Shown piece after piece: positions 2,136 to 31,337 of a stretch of DNA of 64,000 nt (position 1 is the first letter of the stretch; each line of letters begins with the position of its first letter). The notes beneath the pieces were generated by a model. It searched no databases and was not told the origin of the DNA. It saw only the letters and a program-made list of their open reading frames with translations. This DNA is from Candidatus Iainarchaeum sp. (GTDB taxonomy: Archaea; Micrarchaeota; Micrarchaeia; Anstonellales; Bilamarchaeaceae), in NCBI GenBank assembly GCA_028714535.1, contig JAQTME010000001.1, forward strand, positions 69,955 through 133,954, read 5' to 3'. The position numbers were made by a program, and so were the translations under genes.

Positions 2136-2150
2136 CTGGCCCTGGTTGTG

Positions 2151-2983: not shown

Positions 2984-3718
2984 ATGGCCCAGCCCGCTGT
3001 CCAGGTCAATGAGCTCACAAAGATAATAGACGACCGGATAGTGGTGGACAGGATATCGTTCTCGGTGGAGGAGGGCGAGCTGTTCGGCCTGCTGGGCGCC
3101 AACGGCAGCGGCAAGACCACAACGTTCAACATGCTCGCCGGCCTGCTGTCGCCGTCTTCCGGCACGGTGACGCTCCTGGGGAAAAGCATAAAGGAGATGC
3201 AGAAGAGCAAAAGGCCGGAGATAGGCTTCGTAACCCAGGAGGACTCGTTCTATGAGACGCTCACTGTGGAGGAGAACCTGAAGTTCTTCGCGGACATGTT
3301 CGGCATGCCGGGCGTGGAGAGCGATGCGGCGATACGCAAGCTCCTGAAGCAGATGAGGCTCACGGAGAAGGCAGACACCATGGCCTCGCGCCTGTCCGGA
3401 GGCATGAAGAAGCGGCTGAACATGGCGTGCGCCATAGTCCACGACCCGAAGATAATATTCCTGGACGAGCCCACGGTCGGCCTCGACCCGGTAGTGCGCA
3501 AGGAGATATGGGCCCTCATAGAGTCGCTCCATTCCGAGGGCAAGACGATAATCATAACGTCGCACTACATGGACGAGGTCGAGCGGCTGTGCCACCGCGT
3601 CGCGATCATGTACTCCGCGAGGCTGGTGGCCAGCGGAACGCCCGCAGAGCTGAAGACGAAGTACAAGCTCAAGCAGATGGAGGATGTTTTCGCCGAAGTG
3701 GCGAAGCCGGTGTCCTGA
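2984..3718 (+). CDS. ABC transporter ATP-binding protein (ABC-2/DrrA-like)
   Basis: Walker A GANGSGKTT, signature LSGGMKKRL and Walker B IIFLDEPTVGLD. Its stop overlaps the ATG of the next gene (ATGA). Confidence 0.85.
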   Translation: MAQPAVQVNELTKIIDDRIVVDRISFSVEEGELFGLLGANGSGKTTTFNMLAGLLSPSSGTVTLLGKSIKEMQKSKRPEIGFVTQEDSFYETLTVEENLKFFADMFGMPGVESDAAIRKLLKQMRLTEKADTMASRLSGGMKKRLNMACAIVHDPKIIFLDEPTVGLDPVVRKEIWALIESLHSEGKTIIITSHYMDEVERLCHRVAIMYSARLVASGTPAELKTKYKLKQMEDVFAEVAKPVS

Positions 3719-5691
3719 TGAAATTCCTTTCTGCCATGCGCAAGGAGCTGCTGGAAATCATGCACGACCGCACCATGCTGGCAGTGCTTGTCATATTCCC
3801 GATTTTCATAATGGCATTCATGGGAAGCTCGTTCCGTTCCATGGAGATAGTCGGCCTGCCCATCGGCGTGGCGGGGGCGGCCAACACCACGTTCGCGGCC
3901 GCGCTTTTCAGCAGCATAAACGAATCGCACGCCTTCAACCTCCAGGGCTTCCCGTCAGAAGCCGAGGCCCTGGACGCGTTCAGGAACGGCCGGCTGAGGG
4001 CGGTCATAGTCGTCCCGCCGGATTTCGATGCGAACATCAGGCGGGGCAGCGGCTCCGAGGTGCGCGTGCTGGTTGACAATTCAGACCTGGCGCTGGAGCA
4101 GGCGATGCTCGCGGCGATGTCGTCTGTCATCGAGGCATCTTCCGTGAACATAACCAAGGGATACGTCTATTCCGCGTGGGAGGACCTGAAGGGCCTCAAC
4201 GCCTCAGCGGCTTCGCTCAGCGAGCAGATAACCGCCACGAAAAGCCGAATGGAAGAGACTAAGACGAGCCTCGCGGCCGTGCGCGGAAGGATAAATGAGC
4301 TGAGCGTATCCACACTGGAGGAGACGCTGGGCAATGCGTCCAGCGACGTAACAGGCATGCGCCAGGTGCTCCTGCAGCAGAAGGGGGCCCTGGCAAACAT
4401 CTCCACGAGCAGCGGTGAGCTTTTCAGCCAGAGCGATGCGTTCCTCGCCAACGCCACCGGCGCGATTAACCAGTCCATAGCAAGCGTTGACGATACGCAC
4501 TCGAAACTGGCATCGCAGGTGGCAGGCCTGAACAACAGCCTGCACACGCTTGACGCGTCAATAGCCGGCCTTGAGCTTATAAAGAACGCCACGCCGGACA
4601 ACCTGACGAAGGCGGCCCTGGACCTCAACCTGGCCGGCCTGCGCAGCCTCAGGAACGACACCGCGGTGCAGATGGCGAATGCCCAGGACGAGATGGCGTC
4701 GTTAAGGGAGCTGAACGCCACGCTGCAGAACACGTCCGCGTCCCTTGCCGATTACGCAGCATCCGTATCGGCCGCGAAAAATGACGCCGCATCGCTGGAT
4801 GATATGGAAACCGCGCTGAACAACGCGGCCGGGGCCCTGGACAGCCTCAACACATCGTTCAGCGGCGCGCGGGCGCAGGTGAGGGAGCTGAAGGCCCTGC
4901 TGGCGGACATAAACTCCACCAGCGCGCAGATAGAGGGGACGCTGGATGCCGCGCTGGCGCAGGCATCTTCGGTCGAAACCCTGATAGCGTCGCTGGAAGG
5001 CACCGTCGCTGAGCAGACCGGCAAGGATCCGGCCCTGATAGCGTCGCCGCTTTCGGTGAAGGTGGAGGGCCAGTATGCACGGCAGAGCTTCGTGGACTTC
5101 ATCATGCCGCAGGTGATATCGGTCTCCCTGCTGTTCTCCTGCTTCCTGCTCGGCTCTGTGAGCCTGGTGCGGGAAAGGACCAGAAAGACGATAATACGCG
5201 CGCTGCTGGCGCCCGACGGCTTCGTAAACCTTGTGGCCGGGAAGATAGCCACGCTGATGCTCCTTTCGTTCGGGCAGATAGCCCTGATACTGGTGGTGGC
5301 GTCGCTCGTGTTCGGGGTGAGGGTGCCGAACGACTGGGCGCTGCTCATGTGGGGCACGGCAATATCGTCCCTTGTGCTCTCCTCAATCGGCGTGCTCATA
5401 GGCTTTTATGCGAGGAGCGAATCGTCTGCCATCCAGGGCTGCCTCCTCATCGCCATACCCATGCTTTTCCTCGGCAACATCGTGTTCTCCCCGGACCTGC
5501 TTCCGGCGTATACGCAGGTGCTGCAGCAGGCCCTTCCGCTCGCGCACGTGACCAGCATATTCAAGGTCGTGCTGGTAACAGGAGGCAACCCGGCAGCGGA
5601 CGTGATGGCGCTCCTGTCCTATTTCATCCTGCTGATGGTATTGCTCGCCTACGTCCTTGTGAAGAGGCGTGACATAAGCAACTACACATAA
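3718..5691 (+). CDS. ABC-2 family permease with a large extracytoplasmic coiled-coil domain (YhgE/Pip-like)
   Basis: One N-terminal TM helix, a roughly 400-aa Ala/Leu/Ser-rich predicted coiled-coil region with N-x-S/T sequons, then five or six C-terminal TM helices. Translationally coupled to the ATPase. The ORF track's 3427 start overlaps the ATPase in another frame and is rejected. Confidence 0.7.
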   Translation: MKFLSAMRKELLEIMHDRTMLAVLVIFPIFIMAFMGSSFRSMEIVGLPIGVAGAANTTFAAALFSSINESHAFNLQGFPSEAEALDAFRNGRLRAVIVVPPDFDANIRRGSGSEVRVLVDNSDLALEQAMLAAMSSVIEASSVNITKGYVYSAWEDLKGLNASAASLSEQITATKSRMEETKTSLAAVRGRINELSVSTLEETLGNASSDVTGMRQVLLQQKGALANISTSSGELFSQSDAFLANATGAINQSIASVDDTHSKLASQVAGLNNSLHTLDASIAGLELIKNATPDNLTKAALDLNLAGLRSLRNDTAVQMANAQDEMASLRELNATLQNTSASLADYAASVSAAKNDAASLDDMETALNNAAGALDSLNTSFSGARAQVRELKALLADINSTSAQIEGTLDAALAQASSVETLIASLEGTVAEQTGKDPALIASPLSVKVEGQYARQSFVDFIMPQVISVSLLFSCFLLGSVSLVRERTRKTIIRALLAPDGFVNLVAGKIATLMLLSFGQIALILVVASLVFGVRVPNDWALLMWGTAISSLVLSSIGVLIGFYARSESSAIQGCLLIAIPMLFLGNIVFSPDLLPAYTQVLQQALPLAHVTSIFKVVLVTGGNPAADVMALLSYFILLMVLLAYVLVKRRDISNYT

Positions 5692-5739
5692 TCAGCCGCA
5701 AGAGCAAGTGTTTTATCCTTTTCATGCCCTTATCCCGCC

Positions 5740-6882
5740 ATGCAGGACTTCACGGTCACCCCATGGGAAGTGAGCGGCGACATAGACTATGACAGGCTTG
5801 TCAGGCAGTTCGGCACCAGCAGGATAGACGACAACCTCCGCAGCCGGATGAAGGCCGCATGCGGCGAGTTCCACCCGATGCTCAGGCGCGACTTCGTGTT
5901 CTCGCACCGCGACCTCAACCTGGTCCTGGACGACCACGAGAAGGGGAAGGGGTTCTTCCTCTACACCGGCCGCGGGCCGAGCAAGGGCATGCACATAGGG
6001 CACCTGGTCCCGCTCATCTTCACGAAATGGCTGCAGGAGAAATTCAAGGTCAACCTGTACATCGAGATAACCGATGACGAGAAGTTCCTCTACCGGCGCG
6101 AATACTCATGGAAGGACATCGGCGAGAGCGCGCACGACAACATCCTGGACATAGCCGCGGTGGGGTTCGACCCGCAGCGGACATTCATATTCAGGGACAG
6201 CGAATACGTGAAGAACGTCTATCCGCTGCTGCTGAGGACGGCGAGGAAGATAACCGGCTCGACCGTGAAGGCGGTGTTTGGATTTGATGATTCGACCAAC
6301 ATCGGGCTCTCGTTCTACCCGGCATACCAGGTCATACCCTCGTTCTTCGAGAAGAAGCGGTGCCTGATACCCTGCGCCATAGATCAGGACCCCTATTGGC
6401 GTGTGCAGAGGGACGTGGCCGAAGGGCTTGGGTTCCACAAGACCGCCGCCATACATACGAAATTCCTCCCCCCGCTGCAGGGCGTGAGCGGCAAGATGAG
6501 CTCGTCCGCAGGCCAGGAAACGGCGATATTGCTGACGGACGACGAGAAGGCGGTGAAGAACAAGATAAACAGGTACGCGTTCTCGGGCGGCAGGGCGACC
6601 ATTGAGGAGCACAGGAGGCTCGGCGGCAATCCGGACATAGACGTGCCCTACCAATGGATGAAGATACTTTTCGAGCCTGATGATAAGAAGCTGAGAACGG
6701 TGCACGACGACTACCTCGCGGGCAGGCTGCTCACAGGCGAGCTGAAGGCCATGCTCATAGACCGCATAAACTCGTTCCTCAAGGGCCACAGGGAGAAAAA
6801 GAAGAAGGCGGAGAAGGAAATCGAATCCTTCATGTACAAGGGAAAGCTCGCGAAGGAGATGTGGAGCCGCACCTACGAGTGA
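5740..6882 (+). CDS. trpS: tryptophanyl-tRNA synthetase
   Basis: 380 aa. Class I HIGH-like motif (TGRGPSKGMHIGH) and KMSKS-like motif (KMSSS). Confidence 0.85.
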   Translation: MQDFTVTPWEVSGDIDYDRLVRQFGTSRIDDNLRSRMKAACGEFHPMLRRDFVFSHRDLNLVLDDHEKGKGFFLYTGRGPSKGMHIGHLVPLIFTKWLQEKFKVNLYIEITDDEKFLYRREYSWKDIGESAHDNILDIAAVGFDPQRTFIFRDSEYVKNVYPLLLRTARKITGSTVKAVFGFDDSTNIGLSFYPAYQVIPSFFEKKRCLIPCAIDQDPYWRVQRDVAEGLGFHKTAAIHTKFLPPLQGVSGKMSSSAGQETAILLTDDEKAVKNKINRYAFSGGRATIEEHRRLGGNPDIDVPYQWMKILFEPDDKKLRTVHDDYLAGRLLTGELKAMLIDRINSFLKGHREKKKKAEKEIESFMYKGKLAKEMWSRTYE

Positions 6883-7529
6883 TGAGCCTTGAGATGGCTG
6901 CCGGGGGGCTGCAACAGCGCTTCTATGGCCTCAAAGAGGAGTGGTTTGCTCTCTTTCGTGAGGCTGGCGTAAAATGAAGCCACCTTGCCCCAGCGGATGC
7001 TGCCCATCACATCATTTACCTTGGCGAATCCGCCGTATGCCAGGACGCGGGTCGCGTTGGCCGGCGCGTATGCATGGAAATACTTGACCCCTTCATCTAT
7101 TTTGTCGATCAGGGCTGCCAGCGTAAGCAGGCTTCCGATTTTCCTGCACCTGAACTCCTCTGCCACCACCAGGTCAAGGACCTCTGCGGCTGGCGGCTTG
7201 TGCACGGTGATGTGCTCGGCAGAAAGCTTGAACAGTTTGACTTCTTTTACTATCCCTGCTGCCGCGGGGAACCTCCTGATGCCGACCAGGCCGGCCACCT
7301 GGCCAGCTACTTCGGCTACCTCGTAGTTGCGCTTATGCGCTGTTTTTTGAATGTTGCCAAAGCGGTAGGCCGCCAGCTCCCTCTCATAAAGCTGGGTTGC
7401 AATCTCCGGAAGCGGTGAGGGCACCTTGAAACTTTTGTTGAGAAGCGTACTGCAGCTGGCGGCGTCCCTGGGCTCGAATTTCCTTAACGTCACTGTTACG
7501 CCCGTCTTAAGCCTGAATTCTCTCACCAT
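6873..7529 (-). CDS. GNAT family N-acetyltransferase
   Basis: C-terminal 218 aa of the listed ORF (start MVREFRLK… at 7529). Acetyl-CoA-binding motif RCRKIGSLLTLAAL. The upstream 100 codons of the ORF look non-coding. Confidence 0.5.
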   Translation of the reverse strand: MVREFRLKTGVTVTLRKFEPRDAASCSTLLNKSFKVPSPLPEIATQLYERELAAYRFGNIQKTAHKRNYEVAEVAGQVAGLVGIRRFPAAAGIVKEVKLFKLSAEHITVHKPPAAEVLDLVVAEEFRCRKIGSLLTLAALIDKIDEGVKYFHAYAPANATRVLAYGGFAKVNDVMGSIRWGKVASFYASLTKESKPLLFEAIEALLQPPGSHLKAHHS

Positions 7530-7592
7530 TGGATGCACCTCAAGTAATGTTATGCTAAATAAGAATATGTGGGCGTATGATTTTAAATACCT

Positions 7593-8051
7593 GTGATGGG
7601 AAGGGAGGGCATGCGAACGAGGAAAATGAAGACCGGGACTCCGATGCCGAAGGCATTGGCATGCGGCATGCTGGAAGACGAAGGCCGCGCATTGTTCCTG
7701 GTGCGCAGGGACGAACATGGAACGGAGCGCATCGAATTGCCCTGCGTGCTCGTGCCCTCGGGGCGGAGCCCGTTCGCAGAGATAAAGGCCGAATTCGCCC
7801 GCCAGACAGGGATAGACGGGCAGGTGCACGAGATAATACTTGAGGGCAGGTACAACGCCGGCACAAGGAAGAGGAAAATCTGGGTTCCGTGCCTTGTTTT
7901 CCAGGTTACGGCACGCGAGAGGCGCGCGAAACCATCCGGGGGATTCTCAGGTTTCAGATGGCTTCCGCTCGAAGAGGCGAAAAAACAGAGATTGGGGCGC
8001 AATGCCGAATGGCTCCTGCGCAGTCATGCCAGCCTGAACTTGAAGCCGTAG
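7593..8051 (+). CDS. NUDIX-fold protein with a degenerate Nudix box
   Basis: Gx5Ex7-like segment SGRSPFAEIKAEFARQTGIDG at the expected position. The REUXEE residues are not conserved. Confidence 0.4.
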   Translation: MMGREGMRTRKMKTGTPMPKALACGMLEDEGRALFLVRRDEHGTERIELPCVLVPSGRSPFAEIKAEFARQTGIDGQVHEIILEGRYNAGTRKRKIWVPCLVFQVTARERRAKPSGGFSGFRWLPLEEAKKQRLGRNAEWLLRSHASLNLKP

Positions 8052-8431
8052 TGGATGAGCCCCTCCGGGTCGTCCTTCTGTATCATCCTGAAGACCTGCT
8101 CCACGCGGGTGCCGATTTTCACGTCCTTCTTGTGCGCGTCCACTATCTGCGCGGTGAGCTTGGCGCCTTCGTCCAGCTCAACGATGGCCAGGAGGTAAGG
8201 CACCTGGTCCTCGAAGCCCTCGGGCGGCGCTGTCACCTCGGTGAACGAGTAGACCTTCCCCTTGCCGGAATACTTGAACTCCACGAGCTTGCCCTTGCGC
8301 CTGCATTTCGGGCAGATGGAGCGTTTCGGGAAGTAGTGCTTGCCGCACGTTTCGCATTTGACGCCCAGCAGCCTGTACCTTTCCGGGATCCTTCTCCATG
8401 TGAGCGGTATCGATTCCTTCATGTGCATCAC
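8024..8431 (-). CDS. DUF35-type Zn-ribbon/OB-fold protein (thiolase/HMG-CoA synthase partner family)
   Basis: CETCGK…CPKCRRKG zinc ribbon followed by an OB-fold region. This is the family normally encoded beside archaeal thiolase/HMGCS. Confidence 0.7.
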
Positions 8432-9072
8432 TTCCTGGTCTTGGCGTAATCTTCCTTGAACTTTGCTATGCCCTTGTCAGTGAGCTGGTGTTTGAACATG
8501 TCGTCGAACACCGCGGCCGGGACAGTGGCTATATGCGCGCCGAGCTTCGCGGCCTCGACGACGTGCTTGACAGAGCGGACCGAGGCCACGATGACTTCTG
8601 TCTTGTACCCGTAGGCGCAGAATATCTGCATTATCTCGGCCACCAGCTTCATGCCGTCCTCTGAGATGTCGTCGAGCCGGCCCACGAACGGGGAGACGTA
8701 GGCCGCGCCTGCCTTTGCAGCGAGCAGCGCCTGCGCAGGCGAGAAAACCAGCGTCACGTTGGTCTTTATGCCCTTGCCGCTGAGGACGCGGACGGCCTTC
8801 ATGCCCTCCTTTGTCATCGGGATTTTCACGACCACGTTGGGCGCCCATTTGGCGAACTCAACGCCCTCGCCCACCATGCCATCGACGGTGTCGGCGATGC
8901 CCTCCACGCTTATGGGCCCCTTGACGATTTTGGCTATCTCCTGTATGACCGTCCTGTGGTCGCGGCCCTCCTTCATTATGAGGGTGGGGTTGGTCGTCAC
9001 GCCGTCGCACAGGCCCAGCTCCACGGCCCTCTTTATCTGCTCGACATTGGCAGTGTCCATGAAGAATTTCAT
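8428..9072 (-). CDS. transaldolase / fructose-6-phosphate aldolase (short, MipB/TalC type)
   Basis: 214 aa. [14 protein letters not shown]…GVTTNP and a Schiff-base Lys region VKIPMT. Confidence 0.85.
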
Positions 9073-9104
9073 AAGGAGATATCTATCCTGAAGGTTTTAA
9101 GCGA

Positions 9105-10924: not shown

Positions 10925-11571
10925 GACGGGGCCCCTCCGAGAGCGCGCGCCTTCAGCGCGTCTATGGCGGCTTTGATGTCATCCGCAGCGAATATCGCGC
11001 TGGCCGCTGCGAGCACGTTCGCGCCAGCGGCGTACGCGCCGCGCACTGTGTCAAGGTTCACGCCGCCGTCAACCTCGATGTCGATGGACGGGAATTTCCT
11101 GCGGAGCTGCCGGATTTTCTTTTCCATGGCAGTTATGTAGCTCTGGCCTGAGAAACCTGGATGGACGGTCATGATGAGTATGCGCTGCGCCTTGGAGGCG
11201 AACGGGAGCAGCTTTTCCAGCGGCGTTTCTGGGTTTATCGCGAGCCCGAGCCTGCCGCCGGACTTCTTCACCGCATTTTCAATCGCGTCGAACGAGCGTA
11301 TGGTCTCCACGTGGACGAGGTGCAGGTGAGGGCCAGGGACCTTCGCGATCCACTTCTCAGGCTCCTTCACCATCCAGTGGAACTCGTACTTGGCGTTCTG
11401 CAACGCAGGCACCGCAGCGAGGTCGTCCATGCCGATTGTCCTGTTGGGCACGAACTCGCCGTCCATGATGTCCAGCTGTATCTCCTTCACCAGCCCGTTG
11501 ACCTGGGAGATGCGGCGCAGCAATTCCTCCCTGCTCTTGGCCAAGATAGCTGGTATGACCACTGGCTCCAT
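10921..11571 (-). CDS. rpe: ribulose-phosphate 3-epimerase
   Basis: 216 aa. TIM-barrel Rpe motifs (HLHLVH…, DGGVN). Confidence 0.85.
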   Translation of the reverse strand: MEPVVIPAILAKSREELLRRISQVNGLVKEIQLDIMDGEFVPNRTIGMDDLAAVPALQNAKYEFHWMVKEPEKWIAKVPGPHLHLVHVETIRSFDAIENAVKKSGGRLGLAINPETPLEKLLPFASKAQRILIMTVHPGFSGQSYITAMEKKIRQLRRKFPSIDIEVDGGVNLDTVRGAYAAGANVLAAASAIFAADDIKAAIDALKARALGGAPS

Positions 11572-11757
11572 CCTTAACGCCTCCCAGAAAACGAGCGGGT
11601 GCCCGTAACCTGATTTGCCTGGGGATTTATATAAAGATTGTGATTGCAGCCGCCCCTGCGGCCCGCCCTGCCGGGACGCGCCCCATTGGGGCGCAGGTTT
11701 TTGGTTGTTTATTGGTTTTCCACCAATAATTAAAAATCATGCCCGAGAAAGGAAAGC

Positions 11758-11979
11758 ATGAAAATCGACTTGAATGACGTGGTGCACGTGCAGGAGACAG
11801 CCCTTACCATAAGGGGGTCCAGGAGGCGGACGACCGTGCCTGGCGAAATCGTGAGGTTCCTGAAGCTCAAGGACGGCGAGCGCATACGCTGGGCGCTCCT
11901 CAGGAACGGCACGCTCATAGTTTCTGTCGCCACGGAAGCGCGTGGCAGGCACAGCACCAGGAAACAGGCAAAAGCATGA
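11758..11979 (+). CDS. AbrB/MazE/SpoVT-type swapped-hairpin DNA-binding protein
   Basis: 73 aa. …RTTVPGEIVRFLKLKDGERI… resembles the swapped-hairpin fold. Its stop overlaps the start of the substrate-binding-protein gene. Confidence 0.45.
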   Translation: MKIDLNDVVHVQETALTIRGSRRRTTVPGEIVRFLKLKDGERIRWALLRNGTLIVSVATEARGRHSTRKQAKA

Positions 11980-13022
11980 ATGCCGCCAGCACGCTGATTG
12001 CCTGCCTCGCCTGCTTCGCGCTTCTCATGGGCTGCATATTCCTGCAGTTCCAGGGAAGCGGCGGCCAGACAGGGAAGGAAGAGGTGAGGATAGGGTATTT
12101 CCCGAACATGCTCCACGGCCAGGCACTGGTGGGCTGCGCCAATGGCGCGTTCCAGGAGGCATTCGGCCCCAACGTGACGGTGAGGATGGTGCCGTTCAAT
12201 GCCGGGCCCTCGGCCATAGAGGCGCTTTTCGCCGGCGAGCTGGACCTGGCCTACATCGGCCCAAACCCGGCCATCAACGGCTATGTGAAATCAGGCGGGG
12301 ACGCGCTCTGCATAATCGCAGGAGGGGCGAGCGGCGGGGCCGTGCTCGTGGTGCGCAATGATTCCGGCATCAGCAGCGACGCTGATTTCGCAGGCAAGAC
12401 ACTCGCCAGCCCACAGCTCGGCAACACCCAGGACGTTGCGCTGCGCAGCTACATACAGAACGCGGGCCTGAAGATAGGCGAGGGCCCTGGCGGAGTGAGG
12501 GTCATCCCCACCGCCAACCCGGACATCCTGCTCCTCTTCCAAAAAAAGGAGATAGACGGAGCGTGGGTTCCGGAGCCATGGGGGGCACGCCTGGTGCAGG
12601 AGGGTGGCGGCAGGATTTACATTGACGAGCGGGAACTGTGGCCGGACGGAAAGTTCGTAACGGCGAACGTGATCGCGAGCAAGGAGTTCATGGGCAGGCA
12701 TCCGGACCTGGTGAAGCGGTTCCTTGAGGCCCACGTGGAGCTCACCAGGTGGATAAACGGCCACCCTGAGGAGGCAAAGGCGCTGATAAACGGGCAGATA
12801 AGGAACATCACGTCCAAGGCACTCGCGCCGGAAGAGATGGACGCCGCCTTCTCGCGGTGCGATATGACCTATGACCCTGTGAAAAGCTCGCTGGCCAAAT
12901 CCGCTGACGACGCCTACGCGCTCGGCTTCCTCGGCGCTGAGAAGCCGGACCTTTCCGGGATCTACAGCCTTTCCCTGCTTAACGAGGTGCTGCGGGAAAA
13001 GGGCCTGGAGGAGATAGGATGA
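11976..13022 (+). CDS. ABC transporter substrate-binding lipoprotein, NMT1/THI5 (SsuA/TauA/ThiY-like) family
   Basis: Lipobox (LLMGC) then a periplasmic-binding-protein type 2 fold resembling NMT1/THI5. First gene of an SBP-ATPase-permease set with 4-bp overlaps. Confidence 0.7.
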   Translation: MNAASTLIACLACFALLMGCIFLQFQGSGGQTGKEEVRIGYFPNMLHGQALVGCANGAFQEAFGPNVTVRMVPFNAGPSAIEALFAGELDLAYIGPNPAINGYVKSGGDALCIIAGGASGGAVLVVRNDSGISSDADFAGKTLASPQLGNTQDVALRSYIQNAGLKIGEGPGGVRVIPTANPDILLLFQKKEIDGAWVPEPWGARLVQEGGGRIYIDERELWPDGKFVTANVIASKEFMGRHPDLVKRFLEAHVELTRWINGHPEEAKALINGQIRNITSKALAPEEMDAAFSRCDMTYDPVKSSLAKSADDAYALGFLGAEKPDLSGIYSLSLLNEVLREKGLEEIG

Positions 13023-13834
13023 ACCGGCCAGATGTGGAAAGCCGCGCGGATAAGATCAGGCTCGAGGGGGTGCATAAGGGGTTTCCCATGGGCCAGGACC
13101 GCAAGGGCAGGCTCCTTGCCCTTCAAAACGTCGACATTGCCATAAAGCAGGGTGAATTCGTGTGCATCGTGGGGCCGACCGGCTGCGGCAAGACCACAAT
13201 ACTCAACATCATCGCGGGGCTGGCAAAGCCTGACCGCGGGCGGGTGCTGGTCGACGGCAGGGAAGTGGGCGGCCCGGCCCCGGACAGGGTGGTGATGTTC
13301 CAGGAGGCAGCGCTTTTTCCCTGGCTCACGGTGATTGAGAACGTGGAGTTCGGCCTGGAGATGCAGGGCGTGGGAAGGGCGGAGAGGCGCAAACGCGCGG
13401 AGAAGCACCTGAGCCTGGTGCGGCTTTCGCACTTCAGGGATTCTTTCGTGCACGAGCTTTCGGGCGGCATGAAGCAGAGGGTGGCGCTCGCCCGGGCGCT
13501 GGCAATGGACCCGGATATCCTGCTGATGGACGAGCCGTTCGCGGCCCTGGACGCCCAGACCAGGGACAGGTTCCACCTGGAGCTCCAGCAGATATGGATG
13601 AAGACGAAGAAGACGATTTTGTTCGTGACGCACAATGTGAGCGAGGCGGTCTGCCTCGGGGACAGGGTGCTGGTGCTGAGTTACCGGCCGGGGCGGATAA
13701 AAAAGGAATTCACGGTGGACCGCCCACGCCCCAGGGAGTACCGCACGACGCCGGAGCTCGCATGCATCACTGCAATGGTGCTTGACGAGCTCAGGGGAGA
13801 GGTCGACAAGGCGGCAAAGGAGGAGATGGGATGA
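13019..13834 (+). CDS. ABC transporter ATP-binding protein (SsuB/TauB-like)
   Basis: Walker A GPTGCGKTT, signature LSGGMKQRV and Walker B ILLMDEPFAALD. Confidence 0.85.
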   Translation: MNRPDVESRADKIRLEGVHKGFPMGQDRKGRLLALQNVDIAIKQGEFVCIVGPTGCGKTTILNIIAGLAKPDRGRVLVDGREVGGPAPDRVVMFQEAALFPWLTVIENVEFGLEMQGVGRAERRKRAEKHLSLVRLSHFRDSFVHELSGGMKQRVALARALAMDPDILLMDEPFAALDAQTRDRFHLELQQIWMKTKKTILFVTHNVSEAVCLGDRVLVLSYRPGRIKKEFTVDRPRPREYRTTPELACITAMVLDELRGEVDKAAKEEMG

Positions 13835-14607
13835 TGCTGGAACGGAGGGGCTTGCGCTTTGCTGCGTTCTGCATCGTGTTAGTGGCAGCATGGCAGCTGG
13901 TCGCCCTGCTCGGCATCTGGCCCCAGTATATCTTCCCGGCGCCTGCTGGCGTCCTCTCAGCGCTCTGGACGGGGATGTCAGATGGGACTTTCCTGCTTGC
14001 TGCGCTTGCAAGCCTGCAGCGCATGCTCATAGGATTCGGAATCGCATTCGCCCTGGGATTCACGCTCGGCGTGGCCATAGCGCGCAGCAGGATTGTTGGG
14101 GATACGGCCGGGCAGCTGGTGCTGGGCCTGCAGACGCTTCCGAGCATATGCTGGCTTCCGCTGGCTGTCCTTTGGTTCGGCCTGAACGACGCGGCCATAT
14201 TGTTCGTGGTTGTGGCCGGCGCGGTCGGGTCCATAACCATGGCCATCAGCTCTGGCATAGCGCACGTGCCGCCGCTTTTCATAAACGCGGCAAGGACGAT
14301 GGGCGCTTCAGGATGGAACCTCTATTCAAAGGTGATATTCCCTGCTGCGCTCCCGGCGATAATAGCCGGCGCCCGTCAGGGCTGGTCGTTCGCATGGCGC
14401 TCGCTCATGGCAGGGGAGCTCCTGTTCTTCAGTGTGGGGCTGGGGCAGCTGCTCCAGATCGGGAGGGAGCTGAACGACATAAACCAGGTGGCGGCGGTGA
14501 TGCTCGCCATCCTTGCCGTCGGGCTCCTGACCGAAAACCTGGTGTTCGCATCCCTGGAAAGGGCAGTGAAAAGGAAGCGGGGGCTGGAGCAGGAGTCCGG
14601 TTATTAA
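13831..14607 (+). CDS. ABC transporter permease (SsuC/TauC-like, BPD_transp_1)
   Basis: 258 aa with about six TM helices. EAA-like loop AARTMGASGW. Confidence 0.8.
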   Translation: MMLERRGLRFAAFCIVLVAAWQLVALLGIWPQYIFPAPAGVLSALWTGMSDGTFLLAALASLQRMLIGFGIAFALGFTLGVAIARSRIVGDTAGQLVLGLQTLPSICWLPLAVLWFGLNDAAILFVVVAGAVGSITMAISSGIAHVPPLFINAARTMGASGWNLYSKVIFPAALPAIIAGARQGWSFAWRSLMAGELLFFSVGLGQLLQIGRELNDINQVAAVMLAILAVGLLTENLVFASLERAVKRKRGLEQESGY

Positions 14608-14630
14608 ACCGTTGCGGCATATTTTACCCC

Positions 14631-15836
14631 GTGAAACTGAATCCGGGAGAGCTCAAGCTGGACCTTTACTGCAACGGGATGCAGCTGGACCGGAGCTGCG
14701 CGATTGACGAGGACGGATGCGGGATTCTCAGTACGCGCGGCGGGCTTGGCAGCGGGCTGGAACTGATTTTGCCCGGGGGCGTGCACGCCAACGTGCCCGT
14801 AACCGAAGAGTTCGCAAAAAAATCGCCCTATGTGCTGCACAAGGAGGCTGGCGGATACGTGGTAAGGAAGGGCGGCGTGGCTGTCTGCGGGGTCGCGCTT
14901 CTTCCACGCCCTGCGTTCTACGACAGGAAAACCGCCACGGGCAAGCCCATGGGCCGCATCGGCATCCTCCAGGGAACCTATCTGGGCATTTATCCGGCAG
15001 GGCTCTGCGATTTCTGGGGGATGGGGCCGCGCATGAACTGCAGGTTCTGCTCGGTGGGACTGAACCTTGGCGCGAACGAGGAGGCTGGCAAGACCGTCAT
15101 GGACGTGGTGGAAACCGCGCTGGCTGCGCGGGATGAATGCGGCGTCACCTTCGTCCATTTCAACTCGGGCTTTTGCAGGAACGGCGATGAGCTGGGCAAG
15201 CTGGAGCCCTACATAAAGGCCATAAAGGAGAAGACCGGCCTTCTGGTCGGGGTGCAGGCGATACCGTCCGCAGACCTGTCGGCCTATGACCGGCTGAAGA
15301 AGATGGGCGTGGACCACGTCTCATTCTGCATGGAACTTTTCGGGCCCGCGGAATTCAGGAAGACCTGCCCCGGCAAGGCGAAATACCTGGGGCAGGAACG
15401 ATTCCTGAAAGCCATCGGATACTGCACAAGGATTTTCGGCAAAGGAAAGGTGGCCGGGGAAGTGATTGCCGGCCTTGAGAGCCCTGGCAACACCATAAGG
15501 GCCATAGAAACATTCGCGAAGATGGGCGCGGTGGCCACTGTGTGCGTGTTCAGGCCATGCAAGGGAACTGATTATCAAGACCTGCCGCCTCCGGCGTACG
15601 AAGACATGGTCCCTGTTTTCAGGCGCGTTTACACAGCATGCCTGGACTATGGCATCCCGTTCGGCATCGCACCGAACATAAAGGTGAGCATAGTGATGCT
15701 CCCTGAAGAATGCGCCTGCCTTGTCCCGGAGATTACGCTCGGGCAAAGGCTCCAGCTGGCGAAACTCCAAGCCATGAAATTCGCCTTCCAGGCATATTTC
15801 AGGGCAGTCCTCGCCCTCAAATCAGGTAAGCTGTGA
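14631..15836 (+). CDS. radical-SAM-like TIM-barrel protein with a non-canonical Cys cluster (Cx10CxxC)
   Basis: Cys cluster CDFWGMGPRMNCRFC followed by Gly-rich (HFNSGF) and barrel-like segments. Start is GTG at 14631 or ATG at 14679. The ORF-track N-terminal extension (from 13782) overlaps the permease and is rejected. Confidence 0.4.
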   Translation: MKLNPGELKLDLYCNGMQLDRSCAIDEDGCGILSTRGGLGSGLELILPGGVHANVPVTEEFAKKSPYVLHKEAGGYVVRKGGVAVCGVALLPRPAFYDRKTATGKPMGRIGILQGTYLGIYPAGLCDFWGMGPRMNCRFCSVGLNLGANEEAGKTVMDVVETALAARDECGVTFVHFNSGFCRNGDELGKLEPYIKAIKEKTGLLVGVQAIPSADLSAYDRLKKMGVDHVSFCMELFGPAEFRKTCPGKAKYLGQERFLKAIGYCTRIFGKGKVAGEVIAGLESPGNTIRAIETFAKMGAVATVCVFRPCKGTDYQDLPPPAYEDMVPVFRRVYTACLDYGIPFGIAPNIKVSIVMLPEECACLVPEITLGQRLQLAKLQAMKFAFQAYFRAVLALKSGKL

Positions 15837-16695
15837 CTATCCCCAGGTGCGCGGCGGCCATCAGCAGGTACATGTGCAGCCAGGACGGGTGGTTTTCCCC
15901 GGATGCCAGGCGCTTTGGGTCCCGGATTATGGTATGCGCGATATACGCCCCCCATAGCGAGAGGAGGGAAAGGAACGCCACTGCCGGAGGAAGGATGCCT
16001 GCCGCCGCCCCCCAGGCGAAAAGCAGGAACGGGAGCGTGAGGAACGGCGCCATTATCCAGGCGGCCGTCCGTACGCCGTAGATTATCGGGAGCGTCCTGG
16101 CGCCGTAGCGCCTGTCCCCTTCCATGTCGGCGAAATCCTTGGTGCTCGCCGCGCCCAGAAGGAAAATGCCGAGTATGGACCCCATAAGCCACGGGGCTGG
16201 CGAGAGGGGGGTTGCGAAAACAGACCAGCCTGCCACCAGCAGCAGGAGGCCGCGTGGGAGCGCGATGGCCGCATTGGCGATCCATCCATGGTTTTTCAGG
16301 CGCACGGCCGGCCAGGAATAAAGTATCGTGAGGAGCGCGGCGGTTCCGGCGAGCAGCATGAAGGCCGTGCCAACCATGGCTGCGAAAATGAGGGCGACCG
16401 CATAGGCCGCCGCGGCGAGCGTGGTGGCTTCGCCGGCTGTTGCCCTTCCCGATGGCAGCGGACGAGTTGGCTTGTTTATCTTATCCAATTTCACATCGCA
16501 CGCTTGGTTGAATGAGTTGGACGCCCCGTTGAGGAGCATTGCGCTTGCTGAAGCGAGGGCGAGCGCAGGTATTGCCCCGGCGTTTAATACGATGCCATTT
16601 GCAACGGCCGAGGCGATGGCCCCTGAGAGAATGCCGGTCGCTGGCGGAAGGAGGGTGGGGAGCCTGAAAAGTTCGATGAGTTCGTATGGTTTCAC
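15817..16695 (-). CDS. UbiA family prenyltransferase (DGGGP-synthase-like)
   Basis: 292 aa, polytopic. NQACDVKLDKIN matches Nx3Dx3D. A second Asp-rich motif (DFADMEGD) is present. Confidence 0.8.
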   Translation of the reverse strand: MKPYELIELFRLPTLLPPATGILSGAIASAVANGIVLNAGAIPALALASASAMLLNGASNSFNQACDVKLDKINKPTRPLPSGRATAGEATTLAAAAYAVALIFAAMVGTAFMLLAGTAALLTILYSWPAVRLKNHGWIANAAIALPRGLLLLVAGWSVFATPLSPAPWLMGSILGIFLLGAASTKDFADMEGDRRYGARTLPIIYGVRTAAWIMAPFLTLPFLLFAWGAAAGILPPAVAFLSLLSLWGAYIAHTIIRDPKRLASGENHPSWLHMYLLMAAAHLGIVTAYLI

Positions 16696-16743
16696 GGGGT
16701 GATTGAACTGCGCATAAATATAAAGGCTGACGCAGATAAATGC

Positions 16744-19700
16744 TGGATGGACGGGCGGGTTTTGGCGATTTTGATTGCAGCTGCCGCACTGCTACTGATT
16801 TATTTTGTCTATACCGGGGCAACGGCCCAGAAAAAAGCGGACAGGACCGTGATCGTCCTTGGCTTTGACGGCATGGACGCGCGCCTTGCCGAGCAATGGA
16901 TGGACGAAGGCAAGCTGCCGAACCTTGCACGGCTGCGGGCCATGGGAACCTATTCGCGCATCCAGACCACGACCCCTGCTGATACCCCGGTAGCCTGGAC
17001 CACGGTTGCGACCGGGCTCAACCCCGGGAAGCACAATGTCTTGGACTTTCTTGACCGCGACCCTGCAACGTACATGCCACGGATTGCCCTGATAAAAAAG
17101 GAGGAGACAGGAGGCGGAAAGCCGCTCGTGTTCAACCTGAAGCAGGGGGAGCCCATATGGAAGACCGTGAGCGACAATGGGGGCAGGAGCACTGTGATAA
17201 CGGTCCCTGTGACCTTCCCTGCAGAAGATTTCGATGGCAAGATGTTATCTGGCCTAGGAACGCCCGACATACGCGGGACCTGGGGAACGTTCACGGCCTA
17301 TGTGGAAGGCGGGGAGGGCGGGGACAGCCTCATGGGCGGAAACTTCGTGCCCGTGGAATTCGAAGGGGGAGTTGCAAGCACCGAGCTCCGCGGCCCGAAG
17401 GAAATGGCGATAAACATGACCATCACCCGCACTGCGGATGGTGTGAAACTGTCATTTGGGGGGAAGGAATACGCCCTTAAGCAGGGGGAATGGAGCGAAT
17501 GGGCGGACATACAGTTCGAGGCCAATCCGTTCGTGAAGGTCAAGGGAACCGGCAGGTTCTACCTGATTAGCACGGACCCGCTCAGCCTTTACCTCATGCC
17601 GGTCAGCCTGGACCCCAGGGACCCGTTCTTCAGGATTTCCACGCCGGAATGGTATTCGCGCCAGGTCGCAGAGGACGATGGGCTCTACAAGACCGTTGGC
17701 TGGGCTGACGACACCTGGGCGCTCAATGACGACGCCATAGACGAGCAGGTGTTCCTCCAGGACGCCTACAGGACCCTGGAGCAGAAGGAGAAGCTCGTGC
17801 TTGATGAGATGGAAGAAAAGCCGGACCTCCTCATGGCGGTTTTCTATCAGACCGACACCGTCCAGCACATGTTCTACAGGTACATGGACCCGGAAAATCC
17901 GCTCTATGGCAGCATAAGCCCGGAAGAGAAGGAAAGGCACAAGGACGAGATACTGCGCGTCTACCAGAGGATGGACGAGGCTGCCGGCAAGGTCATGAGC
18001 AAAGCTGGCCAGGACGACGTCATAATCGTCATGAGCGACCATGGCTTCAACCCTTTCAGGAAAGCAGTCAATCTGAACACCTGGCTGGCAAATAACGGGT
18101 TCCTTGCAAAAAAGCCCGGCGCAAACACATCCTATTACAAGCTCAACAGCCTCTACGGCGAGCAGGGGCTTTTCTGGAACGACGTCCTGCTGAATGAGAC
18201 GCAGGCCTATTCCATGGGCCTTGGCAACATCTACATAAACCTGAAAGGAAGGGAAGCCCAGGGGGCTGTGGGTGTGGAACGGTATGACGCGGTCCGCGAC
18301 CGGATAATCAGGCAGTTGAAGGAGCTCCGGGACCCTGAGACAGGGGAGAAAGTGATCGCAGACGCCCAGAAGCGCGAGGATTTGTATTCGGGCCCCTATA
18401 TGGATAACGCCGCGGACATCGTGGTCTCGTTCAACCCTGGCTACCGTGTGTCGTGGCAGACTTCGCTGGGCGGGGTGCCGCCGCACGTTATTGAACCGAA
18501 CCTCAAGAAATGGTCCGGGGACCACTGCACCGTGGACCCGAAGCAGACCGAAGGGGTGTTCTTCGTGAACCGCGTTATGGGTCTTGACGGAGAGCCTTCG
18601 CTCCAGGATGTGAACCCCACGCTCCGCAGCCTTCTCGGCCTCCCGGCCAATGAAAGCCTGGACGGCATGTCGATGCTCCGCGATGGCAATGAAACCGCAG
18701 GCCCAGAAGCCGGCTGCAAGGACTGCAACGTCCTTGTCATAACCATGGACGACGTCCGTGCCGACTATCTTCCTCTTTTCAACCCCAAGGCGCTTGCGGA
18801 AACCCCGAACCTGGAGGCGCTCGCTTCAAAGAGCGTGCTGTTCACCAACGCGCACACGGCATTCACATTCACCTGCCCGTCGCACACCATCATGATGACC
18901 GGCAGGTATTTCACGGACGATGACCGCCAGACCAGCCTTCCCCGGATTCTGAAGGGCAACGGGTATGCCACCGGCGCCACGGTCGGGTTCGCCGGCCTGC
19001 GGCAGGAGGAGTGCCCCACCGGCGCAATGTTCGGCTACTACGATGAAAGCAGCACGGCTATAGGTTTCGGAGAGCGTGACGATAATTCTGCCGCCCAGGC
19101 CATGACATGGCTGCAGAACCACAGCAAGGGCAGGTTCTTCTTCTGGCTGCATCTTTATGACGCGCATCCCTTCGGGAAAGCAGCCAACGCCAGCGCGACC
19201 GGCAGCTATTCCGAGAGGATAGGGCAGATGGATGGCCACATTGGGGAGGTGCTCGCATTATTGGACAGGCAAAACCTAACCAACAAAACCATCGTGGTGG
19301 TCCTATCGGACCATGGGATGGGGGCGGATTTCGCCCACCCCGCCAATAACAGGCAGCTCTACGACCTGGCGACCCACGTTCCGATGATGATATACGTCCC
19401 TGGCGGGGCGCCAGCCAGGGCCGAGGGTCTTACGAGCACGGTGGACCTGGCGCCGACCCTCGCCGCGCTTCTTGGCGTGCACTACGCCGATGCAGATGGG
19501 GCTGCACTGTTAGATGCGGACGGCACCCTGGTTCCGGGGTCCGCAAGAGACCACGTATTTGCGACTTACCGCGCGCTCCAGGTGGTGCAGCACATGGTAC
19601 GCACCAATGAGTGGAAGTATATTGTGACCATGATTGAAAACGGCAACACCAGTTATGAGCTCTATAACCTTGCCCAAGACCCCGCCGAGAGCCGGAACCT

Positions 19701-19890
19701 CTATGGCAGCCAGCCGGAGATTGAAGCGCGGTTGAGAGGGCTCCTGCAGGGATACCCGACGGCAATGCCGGGCAGGCTCCGGGGCCTGGGCATGCCTGGG
19801 GCCATGACTGGTTGGTACGGTACCACCACTGCCACCCCAATGAGCAACCAGACCAGGGACGAGCTCCGCTCGCTGGGGTACATAAATTAG
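16744..19890 (+). CDS. membrane-anchored double alkaline-phosphatase-superfamily protein (N-terminal PglZ/NPP-like domain, C-terminal sulfatase-like domain)
   Basis: N-terminal TM anchor. Domain 1: GFDGMDA…TTPADTPVAWTT nucleophile-Thr motif. Domain 2: DDVRADYL…TFTCPSHTIMMTGRY, a sulfatase CxPxR signature with H in place of R, and DHGM later. The 16699 ATG leaves only 3 bp to the divergent UbiA start, so 16744 is preferred. Confidence 0.65.
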   Translation, partial: WMDGRVLAILIAAAALLLIYFVYTGATAQKKADRTVIVLGFDGMDARLAEQWMDEGKLPNLARLRAMGTYSRIQTTTPADTPVAWTTVATGLNPGKHNVLDFLDRDPATYMPRIALIKKEETGGGKPLVFNLKQGEPIWKTVSDNGGRSTVITVPVTFPAEDFDGKMLSGLGTPDIRGTWGTFTAYVEGGEGGDSLMGGNFVPVEFEGGVASTELRGPKEMAINMTITRTADGVKLSFGGKEYALKQGEWSEWADIQFEANPFVKVKGTGRFYLISTDPLSLYLMPVSLDPRDPFFRISTPEWYSRQVAEDDGLYKTVGWADDTWALNDDAIDEQVFLQDAYRTLEQKEKLVLDEMEEKPDLLMAVFYQTDTVQHMFYRYMDPENPLYGSISPEEKERHKDEILRVYQRMDEAAGKVMSKAGQDDVIIVMSDHGFNPFRKAVNLNTWLANNGFLAKKPGANTSYYKLNSLYGEQGLFWNDVLLNETQAYSMGLGNIYINLKGREAQGAVGVERYDAVRDRIIRQLKELRDPETGEKVIADAQKREDLYSGPYMDNAADIVVSFNPGYRVSWQTSLGGVPPHVIEPNLKKWSGDHCTVDPKQTEGVFFVNRVMGLDGEPSLQDVNPTLRSLLGLPANESLDGMSMLRDGNETAGPEAGCKDCNVLVITMDDVRADYLPLFNPKALAETPNLEALASKSVLFTNAHTAFTFTCPSHTIMMTGRYFTDDDRQTSLPRILKGNGYATGATVGFAGLRQEECPTGAMFGYYDESSTAIGFGERDDNSAAQAMTWLQNHSKGRFFFWLHLYDAHPFGKAANASATGSYSERIGQMDGHIGEVLALLDRQNLTNKTIVVVLSDHGMGADFAHPANNRQLYDLATHVPMMIYVPGGAPARAEGLTSTVDLAPTLAALLGVHYADADGAALLDADGTLVPGSARDHVFATYRALQVVQHMVRTNEWKYIVTMIENGNTSYELYNLAQDPAESRNLYGSQPEIEARLRGLLQGYPTAMPGRLRGLGMPGAMTGWYGTTTATPMSNQTRDELRSLGYIN

Positions 19891-20477: not shown

Positions 20478-20933
20478 ATGTCCAAGATGTTTGCGGTTAT
20501 CCTGGTTTTGGCGCTTGTGTCGTTAGCATTCTCAATGAGCTGCGCGGCGGACGCATACAGAAAAGCGTGCGCCTCCTGCCCGTTCGATGAGAACGGCAAG
20601 ACTGACAAGTCGTGCTCCGGCGGCTACCAGGCATCAGGAACTGCATGCATCAGCGCGGCCTACCCGATAATGGCAGGCAAATACGCCAGCGGGGAATGCC
20701 CTGCCGTGGATGCGTGCGCCAGCGAATTATCTTCGTGCGTCGCCCAGTATTCCAGCGGCAATGACAGGGCAGACTGCCAGGAAGGCTCGGTGGCCATCTG
20801 CTATGCTGCCGCGGACCAGTGCACCCAGCAGGCCGCGGTCAAGTGCGGCGAGATAGAGAACCCGTGCAAGGCACCGTCGTTCATAATGCTGCTGCTACTG
20901 GCAGGGGCCGCATTTTACAGCAGGAAAAAATGA
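20478..20933 (+). CDS. small Cys-rich secreted protein with a C-terminal Cys + hydrophobic + RKK sorting signal
   Basis: Signal peptide MSKMFAVILVLALVSLAFS, about 17 Cys, C-terminus …NPCKAPSFIMLLLLAGAAFYSRKK*. A TATA-like TTTTTTAATTC lies about 25 nt upstream. Confidence 0.55.
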   Translation: MSKMFAVILVLALVSLAFSMSCAADAYRKACASCPFDENGKTDKSCSGGYQASGTACISAAYPIMAGKYASGECPAVDACASELSSCVAQYSSGNDRADCQEGSVAICYAAADQCTQQAAVKCGEIENPCKAPSFIMLLLLAGAAFYSRKK

Positions 20934-31294: not shown

Positions 31295-31337
31295 GGCCCT
31301 ATCTATCCTTAAAGAATTTTAAATGCTCAGGTAGCCA

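Follow-up and report, generated by a model that had tools for sequence, protein, structure and literature searches.

A membrane-anchored fusion of two alkaline-phosphatase-fold domains in Micrarchaeota and its conserved association with UbiA prenyltransferase and radical SAM genes

The ebo operon (eboA-F) is the only described conserved partnership of a UbiA-family prenyltransferase with a PF01663 protein that a literature search recovered. It groups the UbiA-like prenyltransferase EboC with EboF, an 'alkaline phosphatase family' protein (PMC5133447; bioRxiv 10.64898/2026.05.21.724671), and is a precedent for the pairing described here. This pairing lies in a stretch of 64,000 nucleotides from a Candidatus Iainarchaeum sp. 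genome of the Micrarchaeota (GCA_028714535.1, contig JAQTME010000001.1, positions 69,955 to 133,954; hereafter, the window). In the window, a UbiA gene stands beside a gene for a membrane-anchored fusion of two alkaline phosphatase (AlkP)-superfamily domains, and the 3' end of UbiA overlaps a conserved radical SAM (rSAM) gene that the first-pass annotation did not mention. In the best-supported reading of the sequence, the fusion joins two catalytically intact phosphoryl-transfer domains, a two-metal domain of the nucleotide pyrophosphatase/phosphodiesterase (NPP) type with Thr80 as the nucleophile and a one-metal, sulfatase-fold domain with Thr709. Equally best supported is that the fusion is a component of a conserved four-part module consisting of UbiA, a LipA/BioB-like rSAM protein, and two AlkP-fold enzymes that are separate genes elsewhere. 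Unrelated archaea and bacteria also have the four parts clustered, each as a gene of its own, and this recurrence suggests a pathway, so far undescribed, that concerns isoprenoid lipids or the cell envelope.

The window module is not an ebo operon. On the EboC model, its UbiA reaches 57.9 bits (cut-off 250), and EboA, EboB, EboD, and EboE are absent from the cluster. No TatD, sugar-phosphate cyclase, or xylose-isomerase-like genes occur near the module in Micrarchaeota, in locus L172, or in the other loci examined (compared loci and proteins carry L and P numbers, respectively). No targeting signals are reported for the EboF homologues of eukaryotes, which are presumed cytosolic (PMC5133447); the window AlkP protein, by contrast, is anchored and probably external. 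Unlike ebo, the window module also has an rSAM protein and a second AlkP-fold enzyme. In mycobacteria, the decaprenylphosphoryl-5-phosphoribose (DPPR) synthase Rv3806c, a UbiA-family enzyme, works with the phosphatase Rv3807c and the short-chain dehydrogenase/reductase (SDR) DprE2, and a polyprenyl-linked phosphorylated head group is made and then dephosphorylated. The window module would follow a similar logic, and SDR/epimerase genes recur near it in L011, L036, and L137. However, the mycobacterial system uses a different UbiA subfamily and a PAP2 rather than an AlkP-fold phosphatase, and it has no rSAM protein.

The fusion consists of a signal anchor, an NPP-type domain, a linker, a Thr-type sulfatase-fold domain, and a C-terminal tail, in that order (residues are numbered on the 1047-aa protein unless stated otherwise). 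Nine full-length or near-full-length homologues with 55-100% identity come from independent NCBI, ENA, JGI, and Logan assemblies; thus, the fusion is not an assembly artefact. One homologue was found on 20 contigs. The AlphaFold2 model (mean pLDDT 81.9) contains two AlkP-type alpha/beta cores joined by a low-confidence linker at about residues 646-660 and followed by a disordered tail. Homotypic tandems exist for both domains, with two NPP-type copies in P0010-P0012 (about 1300-1370 aa) and two Thr-type sulfatase-fold copies in P0361-P0368 (about 930-1550 aa). In the comparison of domain arrangements, the heterotypic fusion was found only in this Micrarchaeota group.

The signal anchor that had been predicted for this protein is confirmed as one N-terminal membrane helix. 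Residues 5-23 form the sole hydrophobic segment (Kyte-Doolittle mean 2.6). There are 11 N-x-S/T sequons in the protein, and basic N-termini precede the helix in archaeal homologues (MKRP..., MNRR...). Among the bacterial homologues of the N-terminal half that were inspected, P0029 and P0034 have a lipoprotein-type Cys signal and the rest have a single N-terminal hydrophobic helix. From such features we infer that the catalytic domains most likely lie outside the membrane.

The N-terminal half resembles the NPPs (PF01663), which include Xanthomonas NPP, ENPP4, ENPP6, ENPP7, and PhnA. The PF01663 match (E=3.6e-55) is broken into four stretches by an insertion. First-pass annotation had described this domain as PglZ/nucleotide-pyrophosphatase-like with a Thr nucleophile; the NPP assignment and the nucleophile stand, but PglZ (PF08665) is rejected because it is absent from the Pfam matches at E<=0.01. 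Thr80 aligns with the nucleophilic Thr of Xac NPP, and each of the 14 aligned family members has Thr or Ser there. In the AlphaFold2 model, a helix at residues 80-89 follows a strand at 68-73, as the NPP nucleophile helix follows the second core strand. The putative metal ligands D41, D370, H374, D431, H432, and H593 are invariant or at least 90% conserved across 14-47 aligned relatives; D41 and D431-H432 align directly to NPP, whereas D370/H374 and H593 are assigned by motif spacing (DxxxH and GDH) and not by coordinates. The domain therefore has the family model, core fold, Thr/Ser nucleophile, and six-ligand two-metal site of NPPs. It differs from them by a beta-rich insertion of ~200 residues and by belonging to a separate family that has no solved relative by sequence alone. 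A phmmer search recovered no solved relative, and a profile search against solved structures gave marginal NPP and PhnA matches (best E=0.0065). Members of this family (AlkP_N below) are about 650-690 aa long, carry signal-anchor or lipoprotein N-termini, and are labelled 'predicted AlkP superfamily phosphohydrolase/phosphomutase'. Structural neighbours of the N-terminal half include the lipid phosphodiesterases ENPP6 and ENPP7.

The C-terminal half shares its fold and SGSH_C subdomain with type I (S1) sulfatases and phosphonate monoester hydrolases (PMHs), such as PAS, choline sulfatase, RlPMH, and EfAS, and finds its best sequence and structure matches among them. PF00884 matches residues 677-927 of the 1063-aa numbering (E=2.1e-41), followed by SGSH_C (E=1.2e-9). 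The motif string TCPSHTIMMTGRY, which had been read as a CxPxR formylglycine signature with Arg replaced by His, is present in the fusion. However, alignment to solved sulfatases (SLSGPSRACMITGKH and ATSTPSRYAMLTGEY) shifts its register by one residue, so that Thr709 occupies the formylglycine position, Cys710 is the variable 'x', and His713 replaces Arg. Hence the sulfatase-like domain and the Arg-to-His change hold, and a sulfatase with a doubtfully matured Cys does not. T-C-P-S-H is invariant in the nine fusion proteins. Among the 148 nearest cluster representatives at 50% identity, the motif positions are Thr in 144, Pro in 140, and His in 133, with TLPSH (81) and TLPAH (26) as the commonest forms. 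The prevalence of Thr places the C-terminal half in a large uncharacterised Thr-type clade rather than among decayed sulfatases. D668, H807, D855, and H856 are conserved in both the fusion proteins and the 148 representatives, and the Asp...Asp-His metal ligands are those of the PMH and EfAS type. Each half thus retains its nucleophile and metal-ligand set among aligned relatives, as intact catalytic domains would.

Whereas S1 sulfatases carry C/S-x-P/A-x-R, the window clade carries T-x-P-[SA]-H, with Thr rather than formylglycine as the predicted nucleophile. The clade also departs from sulfatases in its sulfate-binding Lys residues. The set compared was K113/H115/K375 of PAS and K110/H112/K324 of EfAS, in which the Lys positions were mapped and the His equivalent to H115 was left unmapped. 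The sulfatase 'GK' aligns to G747-F748 and 'DKRFMYE' to N867-N868-R-Q-L-Y-D, and the two Lys positions are S/A/F and G/S/H across the clade. Mutation of the equivalent residues abolishes or nearly abolishes the activity of an Enterococcus arylsulfatase (PMC12421950). Among the hallmarks of S1 sulfatases, the PF00884 fold and C-terminal subdomain are therefore present, while the nucleophile motif and sulfate-binding Lys are lacking, and no maturation enzyme of the formylglycine-generating (FGE) or SPASM-type anaerobic (anSME) kind was identified. Since Thr is found at the nucleophile position clade-wide and the sulfate-binding Lys are lost, sulfoester chemistry and FGE/anSME maturation of this half are unlikely. 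A true sulfatase could still be envisaged if the neighbouring rSAM protein acted like anSME and oxidised Thr to a keto analogue of formylglycine. The fold, the best sequence and structure matches of the C-terminal half (S1 sulfatases), the conserved rSAM gene alongside, and its 4-nt overlap with the sulfatase-like gene in L172 are compatible with this idea. It is nonetheless the weakest of the alternatives and highly improbable: anSME-type maturation was tested and rejected, and the predicted model of the rSAM protein is unlike anSME.

Besides sulfatases, structural neighbours of the C-terminal half include PMH, LtaS/LtaP, and YejM. LtaS, LtaP, EptA, MCR-1, and YejM are AlkP-fold phospho-head-group transferases that work on membrane lipids at the outer face of the membrane, and the window protein has marginal sequence similarity to them (E=0.0028 and 16 bits on the LtaS model; 43 bits for YejM, cut-off 825). 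It shares the Thr nucleophile and the one-metal D/E, D, H site of this group (T709, D668, D855, and H856) and, probably, its extracytoplasmic orientation. In place of the group's N-terminal membrane domain of ~5 transmembrane (TM) segments, the window protein has a single TM helix; L080 encodes a separate-gene homologue with at least four such segments. In overall fold, the window protein is nearer to sulfatases than to the LtaS/EptA group, and its transferase activity is putative.

A C-terminal signature, L-[RKQE]-x-LGY-[ILV], closes the Thr-type sulfatase-fold domain and separates its family from S1 sulfatases. In the window it lies at 19864-19887. LGY[ILVM] is found in 108 of the 148 representatives, against 7 expected from shuffles, and the GYIN end is invariant in fusion proteins. 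The signature also ends the separate gene of L080 (LKSLGYLH; 11194-13032, minus strand). In L172, LRSLGYLS ends the NPP-type AlkP protein instead (7018-9084).

The UbiA partner retains the Asp-rich prenyl-diphosphate/Mg2+ motifs of its superfamily. The motifs N60...N63-Q-x-x-D67-x-x-x-D71 and K186-D-F-x-D190-x-x-G-D194 are invariant in 20 orthologues, as is the family-specific C-terminal motif NHPSWxHMY in the orthologue alignment. Its best solved relatives belong to the clade of digeranylgeranylglyceryl phosphate (DGGGP) synthase and ChlG/BchG, with which it has the Asp-rich motifs in common. The initial description as DGGGP-synthase-like holds loosely, but chlorophyll synthase ChlG (82.7 bits) scores above MjDGGGPS (66.5 bits), and the protein falls far below every NCBIfam cut-off. 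Its scores on the DGGGP synthase models are 90.5 bits for PRK12882 (cut-off 296), 78.3 for PRK12883 (353), and 119.5 for PRK12884 (269), and equivalog status is rejected on these grounds. Window UbiA differs from the DGGGP synthase/ChlG clade in its own invariant motifs, NQxxDxxxD and NHPSWxHMY, and in its orthologues, which at 41-51% identity are mostly bacterial.

The rSAM partner has a variant cluster motif, C-x10-C-x2-C (LCDFWGMGPRMNCRFCS), together with further invariant Cys residues, and passes the NF045502 'variant_rSAM' model. Its predicted structure resembles LipA, HydG, HydE, BioB, and PylB and is unlike tetraether synthase. Identity between archaeal and bacterial members is 50-60%.

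The trio of rSAM, UbiA, and fusion genes is kept in every Micrarchaeota relative examined (57-83% identity), while the flanking genes vary. Conservation of the UbiA adjacency, on which a lipid or envelope role had been made to depend, is thus borne out in this group, and the adjacency recurs in bacteria and other archaea. Gene pairs of the module are found in Asgard archaea, Planctomycetota, Omnitrophota, Patescibacteria, and soil metagenomes. Two scans were made, one anchored on rSAM (80 loci, one genome per species) and one anchored on UbiA in metagenomes (80 loci, many on short contigs). In the rSAM-anchored scan, UbiA adjoins rSAM in Planctomycetota, Omnitrophota, Paceibacterota, Actinobacteria, Hermodarchaeota, Iainarchaeum, and Clostridia; the same adjacency occurs in Helarchaeota. 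The two genes overlap by 4 nt in Planctomycetota, Omnitrophota, and Patescibacteria and are separated by 1 nt in Hermodarchaeota, 32 nt in Actinobacteria, and 51 nt in Helarchaeota. An rSAM gene beside UbiA in L011 belongs to a different family (23% identity, canonical CxxxCxxC) and was not counted as linkage. AlkP_N adjoins rSAM at 5 of the 80 rSAM-anchored loci. When neighbours were clustered, no real gene family recurred near rSAM more often than UbiA and AlkP_N. A larger cluster consisted of antisense open reading frames (ORFs) of rSAM, pyruvate:ferredoxin oxidoreductase tied with AlkP_N (6 loci), and polyprenyl synthase came next (four loci). Antisense artefacts from naive ORF clustering in high-GC loci (clusters 1 and 6) were set aside. 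At the UbiA-anchored metagenome loci, AlkP_N lies co-directionally beside UbiA in 19 of 80, and rSAM and polyprenyl synthase are each found at 3.

Three loci are decisive for the module. On a 1.3-Mb Micrarchaeia contig (L172), a co-directional operon encodes a PF01663 protein (688 aa), UbiA, rSAM, and a Thr-type sulfatase-like protein (476 aa) with a signal peptide, TLPSH, and a C-terminal hydrophobic anchor, whose gene overlaps rSAM by 4 nt. In a Clostridia metagenome-assembled genome (MAG; L080), AlkP_N, rSAM, a multi-TM Thr-sulfatase-like protein (TLASH, ending LGYLH), UbiA, and polyprenyl synthase are encoded in a row. An Iainarchaeum locus (L036) has the same parts with a DUF92 protein, a polyprenyl synthase, an SDR, and an exosortase-like gene. 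Because the AlkP parts are separate genes of one operon in L172 and L080, an arrangement absent from the first-pass annotation, the window protein represents a fusion of two genes that share an operon elsewhere.

The gene linkage also bears on another account, in which the fusion scavenges phosphate or nucleotides as a surface nucleotide pyrophosphatase and phosphatase and lies next to UbiA and rSAM through co-regulation or drift rather than through a shared pathway. In its favour, nucleotides are the classical substrates of NPP-family enzymes, many homologues stand alone in unrelated contexts, and most rSAM loci have no partners. However, adjacency spans at least eight phyla in varied gene orders with tight coupling (4-nt overlaps and co-directional operons), and the two AlkP genes that are fused in the window flank UbiA and rSAM in L172, a link of the Rosetta-stone type. 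Nor is a phosphate or nucleoside transporter conserved beside the module. Scavenging is accordingly a rather improbable explanation.

Several loci carry other genes near the module or its pairs. The L172 operon is embedded among type IV pilus-like genes (1631-6666 and 14511-15089) encoding T2SSE, two T2SSF proteins, a class III signal peptide protein, and a prepilin peptidase. In a Planctomycetales MAG (L013, 3836-8431), UbiA-rSAM is followed by four genes, namely an FAD amine-oxidase/phytoene-desaturase-like gene, a DegT aminotransferase, a further rSAM, and, as the last, an rSAM with a Zn-ribbon of the MJ0619/tetraether-synthase type. B12-binding rSAM genes lie just downstream of UbiA-rSAM in L015 (6831-12757, four consecutive copies), L021 (10182-11741), and L108 (13607-15016); the carriers are Omnitrophota, Paceibacterota, and a metagenome locus. 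In Hermodarchaeota (L016, 1820-6840; L017, 7971-12991), rSAM-UbiA lies between Mch plus FwdC-like genes and Ftr, which are tetrahydromethanopterin/methanofuran C1 genes. These genes were rejected as a module part and attributed to lineage synteny, as they are not seen around the Helarchaeota pair (L173). A Planctomycetota MAG (L071, 8012-11197) has a 116-aa rSAM fragment upstream of the full copy with genes inserted between, and a DDE transposase occupies the corresponding place in the related loci L100 (5694-6833) and L104. A Peptidase_C25 (gingipain-like) protein of 1300-1500 aa with a FlgD_ig domain adjoins the AlkP/UbiA pair or UbiA alone in the high-GC bacterial loci L009 (3452-7984), L010 (1496-5710), and L098 (3708-7688).

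The features of the window locus are listed in Table 1. The head-to-head arrangement of UbiA with a large two-AlkP-domain gene, as originally annotated, is supported by the ORF and Pfam domain calls. The mechanical ORF of the fusion runs from a GTG (16699..19890, plus strand) and has 1063 aa, the length first given. The ATG start is preferred, as it fits the homologues and the identical NCBI protein P0001 (100% identity, 1047 aa). Starts at 16695 and 16744, about 50 bp apart, had been proposed; the spacing is right and the second start is displaced. The rSAM GTG start was chosen by alignment to orthologues beginning M-[RS]-LNPGELKL.

Table 1. Coordinates of module genes and fusion-protein features in the window
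Feature	Position (nt)	Strand	Details
Radical SAM (rSAM) gene	14631..15836	+	401 aa, GTG start; third conserved module member
UbiA-family intramembrane prenyltransferase gene	15817..16695	-	292 aa, GTG start; PF01040 E=4.9e-36
Divergent UbiA/fusion intergenic region	16696..16746	.	51 nt between start codons
Fusion protein gene	16747..19890	+	1047 aa, ATG start
N-terminal transmembrane helix	16759..16815	+	aa 5-23; signal anchor
NPP-type (PF01663) phosphodiesterase/pyrophosphatase domain	16843..18681	+	aa 33-645; Thr80 codon 16984-16986
Beta-rich insertion in NPP-type domain	17044-17646	+	about aa 100-300
Sulfatase-fold domain (PF00884 + SGSH_C)	18727..19761	+	aa 661-1005; Thr709 codon 18871-18873
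C-terminal tail, low-confidence, ending ...DELRSLGYIN	19762..19887	+	

The convergent 3' ends of rSAM and UbiA overlap by exactly 20 nt in the window (15817-15836), L001 (7071-7090), and L004 (3999-4018) and by 47 nt in L005. Midway between the divergent starts of UbiA and the fusion, a near-palindromic A/T-rich TATA-like element, ATAAATATAAA, lies at 16714-16724, about 24-28 nt from both start codons. Three relatives have equivalent central elements, namely AAATTTAAA in L004 (~4880-4890) and L005 (~7966-7976) and AATTTAA in L001 (~7968-7976); the counted element-to-start spacing of L004 resembles that of the window. The element may be a shared bidirectional promoter for leaderless transcripts, and this shared palindromic element suggests co-expression of UbiA and the fusion. 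Directly upstream of rSAM is a three-gene NitT/TauT-like ABC transporter (binding protein, ATPase, and permease; 11976-14607, plus strand), assigned by sequence features, which is not conserved in the loci of relatives. Elsewhere in the window, three small Cys-rich proteins with N-terminal hydrophobic signals are encoded at 20478-20933 (plus strand) and 31022-31697 (minus strand); the one of the three that was searched (20478-20933) has no Pfam match. A 1320-aa ORF (49143-53105, plus strand) has no Pfam match at E<=1e-4.

The window also holds genes that bear on isoprenoid metabolism. A 418-aa squalene/phytoene synthase ORF is located at 1185-2441 on the minus strand (PF00494, E=7e-78), and a thiolase is encoded as well. 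Together they indicate an organism that handles isoprenoids, and from the PF00494 match this DPANN-type genome appears able to make head-to-head isoprenoids. The 64 kb contain no polyprenyl synthase related to that of L080 and no paralogue of any of the four module parts.

This capacity must be set against the possibility that the module salvages or remodels lipids rather than making a new one. The ecto-domains would then act like phospholipases C or D on existing phospholipids, host-derived or the cell's own, and strip their phospho-head groups, for example under phosphate limitation, while UbiA and rSAM would rebuild or re-prenylate the products. DPANN archaea are widely considered to rely on lipids from their hosts. 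The resemblance of the N-terminal half to ENPP6, which is of the lysophospholipase C type, and ENPP7, an alkaline sphingomyelinase, would suit such a role. So would the DUF92 gene of L036, whose family includes the plant phytyl-phosphate kinase VTE6 and which would suggest prenol salvage, and the ABC transporter upstream of rSAM, despite its lack of conservation. However, free-living bacteria whose genomes are large (contigs of 0.45-6.4 Mb) have the module as well, and a polyprenyl synthase for de novo synthesis is part of the clusters in other lineages. Isoprenoid enzymes are encoded in the window genome too, and no acyl-/alkyl-transferase or glycosyltransferase typical of remodelling operons is linked to the module. 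Salvage or remodelling is thus unlikely, though it deserves consideration.

The fusion is best read as carrying out phosphoester chemistry, either at the envelope or on a lipid. This retains the phosphoester part of the lipid head-group or envelope role first suggested for the locus and drops its sulfoester part, for which Thr709 and the lost sulfate-binding Lys are ill suited. Specifically, we give about an even chance to an outer-face, two-step phosphoesterase/phosphotransferase whose substrate is a phosphorylated isoprenoid lipid produced by UbiA and the rSAM protein. On the cytoplasmic side, UbiA would attach a polyprenyl chain from a prenyl diphosphate to an acceptor, and the rSAM protein would make or modify that acceptor or the chain. 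The phosphorylated lipid would then arrive at the outer leaflet. There, the NPP-type domain would cleave a phosphodiester or pyrophosphate bond, to which its site is suited. The Thr709 domain, with a D/T/D-H metal site of the PMH/LtaS-like type that suits such a step, would remove the remaining phosphate-containing group or transfer it to an envelope acceptor, following the logic of LtaS/EptA. Fusion of the two ecto-enzymes in the Micrarchaeota lineage would fix their 1:1 stoichiometry and proximity. The scheme is favoured by the conserved domains and residues, the lipid phosphodiesterases among the structural neighbours, the gene linkage, the shared TATA-like element, the isoprenoid genes of the window, and the ebo precedent. 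What the domains are, their conserved catalytic residues, the one anchor, and the linkage across phyla are observed, while the orientation, the lipid substrate, and how and in which order the two steps proceed are inferred.

Several observations weigh against this two-step scheme. The active sites of UbiA enzymes normally lie on the cytoplasmic side, and the AlkP domains are predicted to be external; thus, a flipping step would be needed, and no flippase is found in the cluster. The UbiA product may carry no phosphate. With 4037 and 67088 matches, the two AlkP families extend far beyond the module, so their members need not all act on its lipid. Linkage of UbiA and AlkP_N is frequent but not universal, as, among the 20 UbiA loci flanked on each side by 2.3 kb or more, AlkP_N is found at only 2. 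Most Acidobacteriota rSAM loci have no partner at all within 10 kb, and stand-alone AlkP_N homologues, such as the bacterial P0029 and P0012, occur in unrelated contexts (L007 and L008) with no UbiA or rSAM nearby.

A broader proposal is that the four genes constitute an unrecognised archaeal and bacterial pathway to a new isoprenoid lipid or lipid-linked carrier. The rSAM protein would perform a new C-H functionalisation, for instance sulfur insertion or C-C coupling on a prenylated intermediate, and a phospho-head group would be processed or transferred outside the cell. Its carriers would be DPANN, Asgard, Candidate Phyla Radiation (CPR), Omnitrophota, Planctomycetota, and Acidobacteriota-rich soil communities. 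This proposal is tentative and less likely than not. The parts belong to known superfamilies, within which the two AlkP subfamilies, the UbiA subfamily, and the rSAM family are uncharacterised, as is the association among them. The module matches no described pathway in the searchable literature, in which reports on the ebo operon were the only relevant ones found.

If the module is a pathway, it would add a widely distributed gene set to those that shape archaeal and bacterial membranes and envelopes. Its carriers include DPANN and CPR, lineages usually described as unable to make their own lipids. The Thr-type 'sulfatase' clade (TxP[SA]H...LGY) is very unlikely to consist of sulfatases, and surveys of sulfur and glycan cycling in genomes and metagenomes probably misname its members on a large scale. 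As a Rosetta stone, the fusion ties two uncharacterised AlkP-fold families to one process, and this link makes the question testable.

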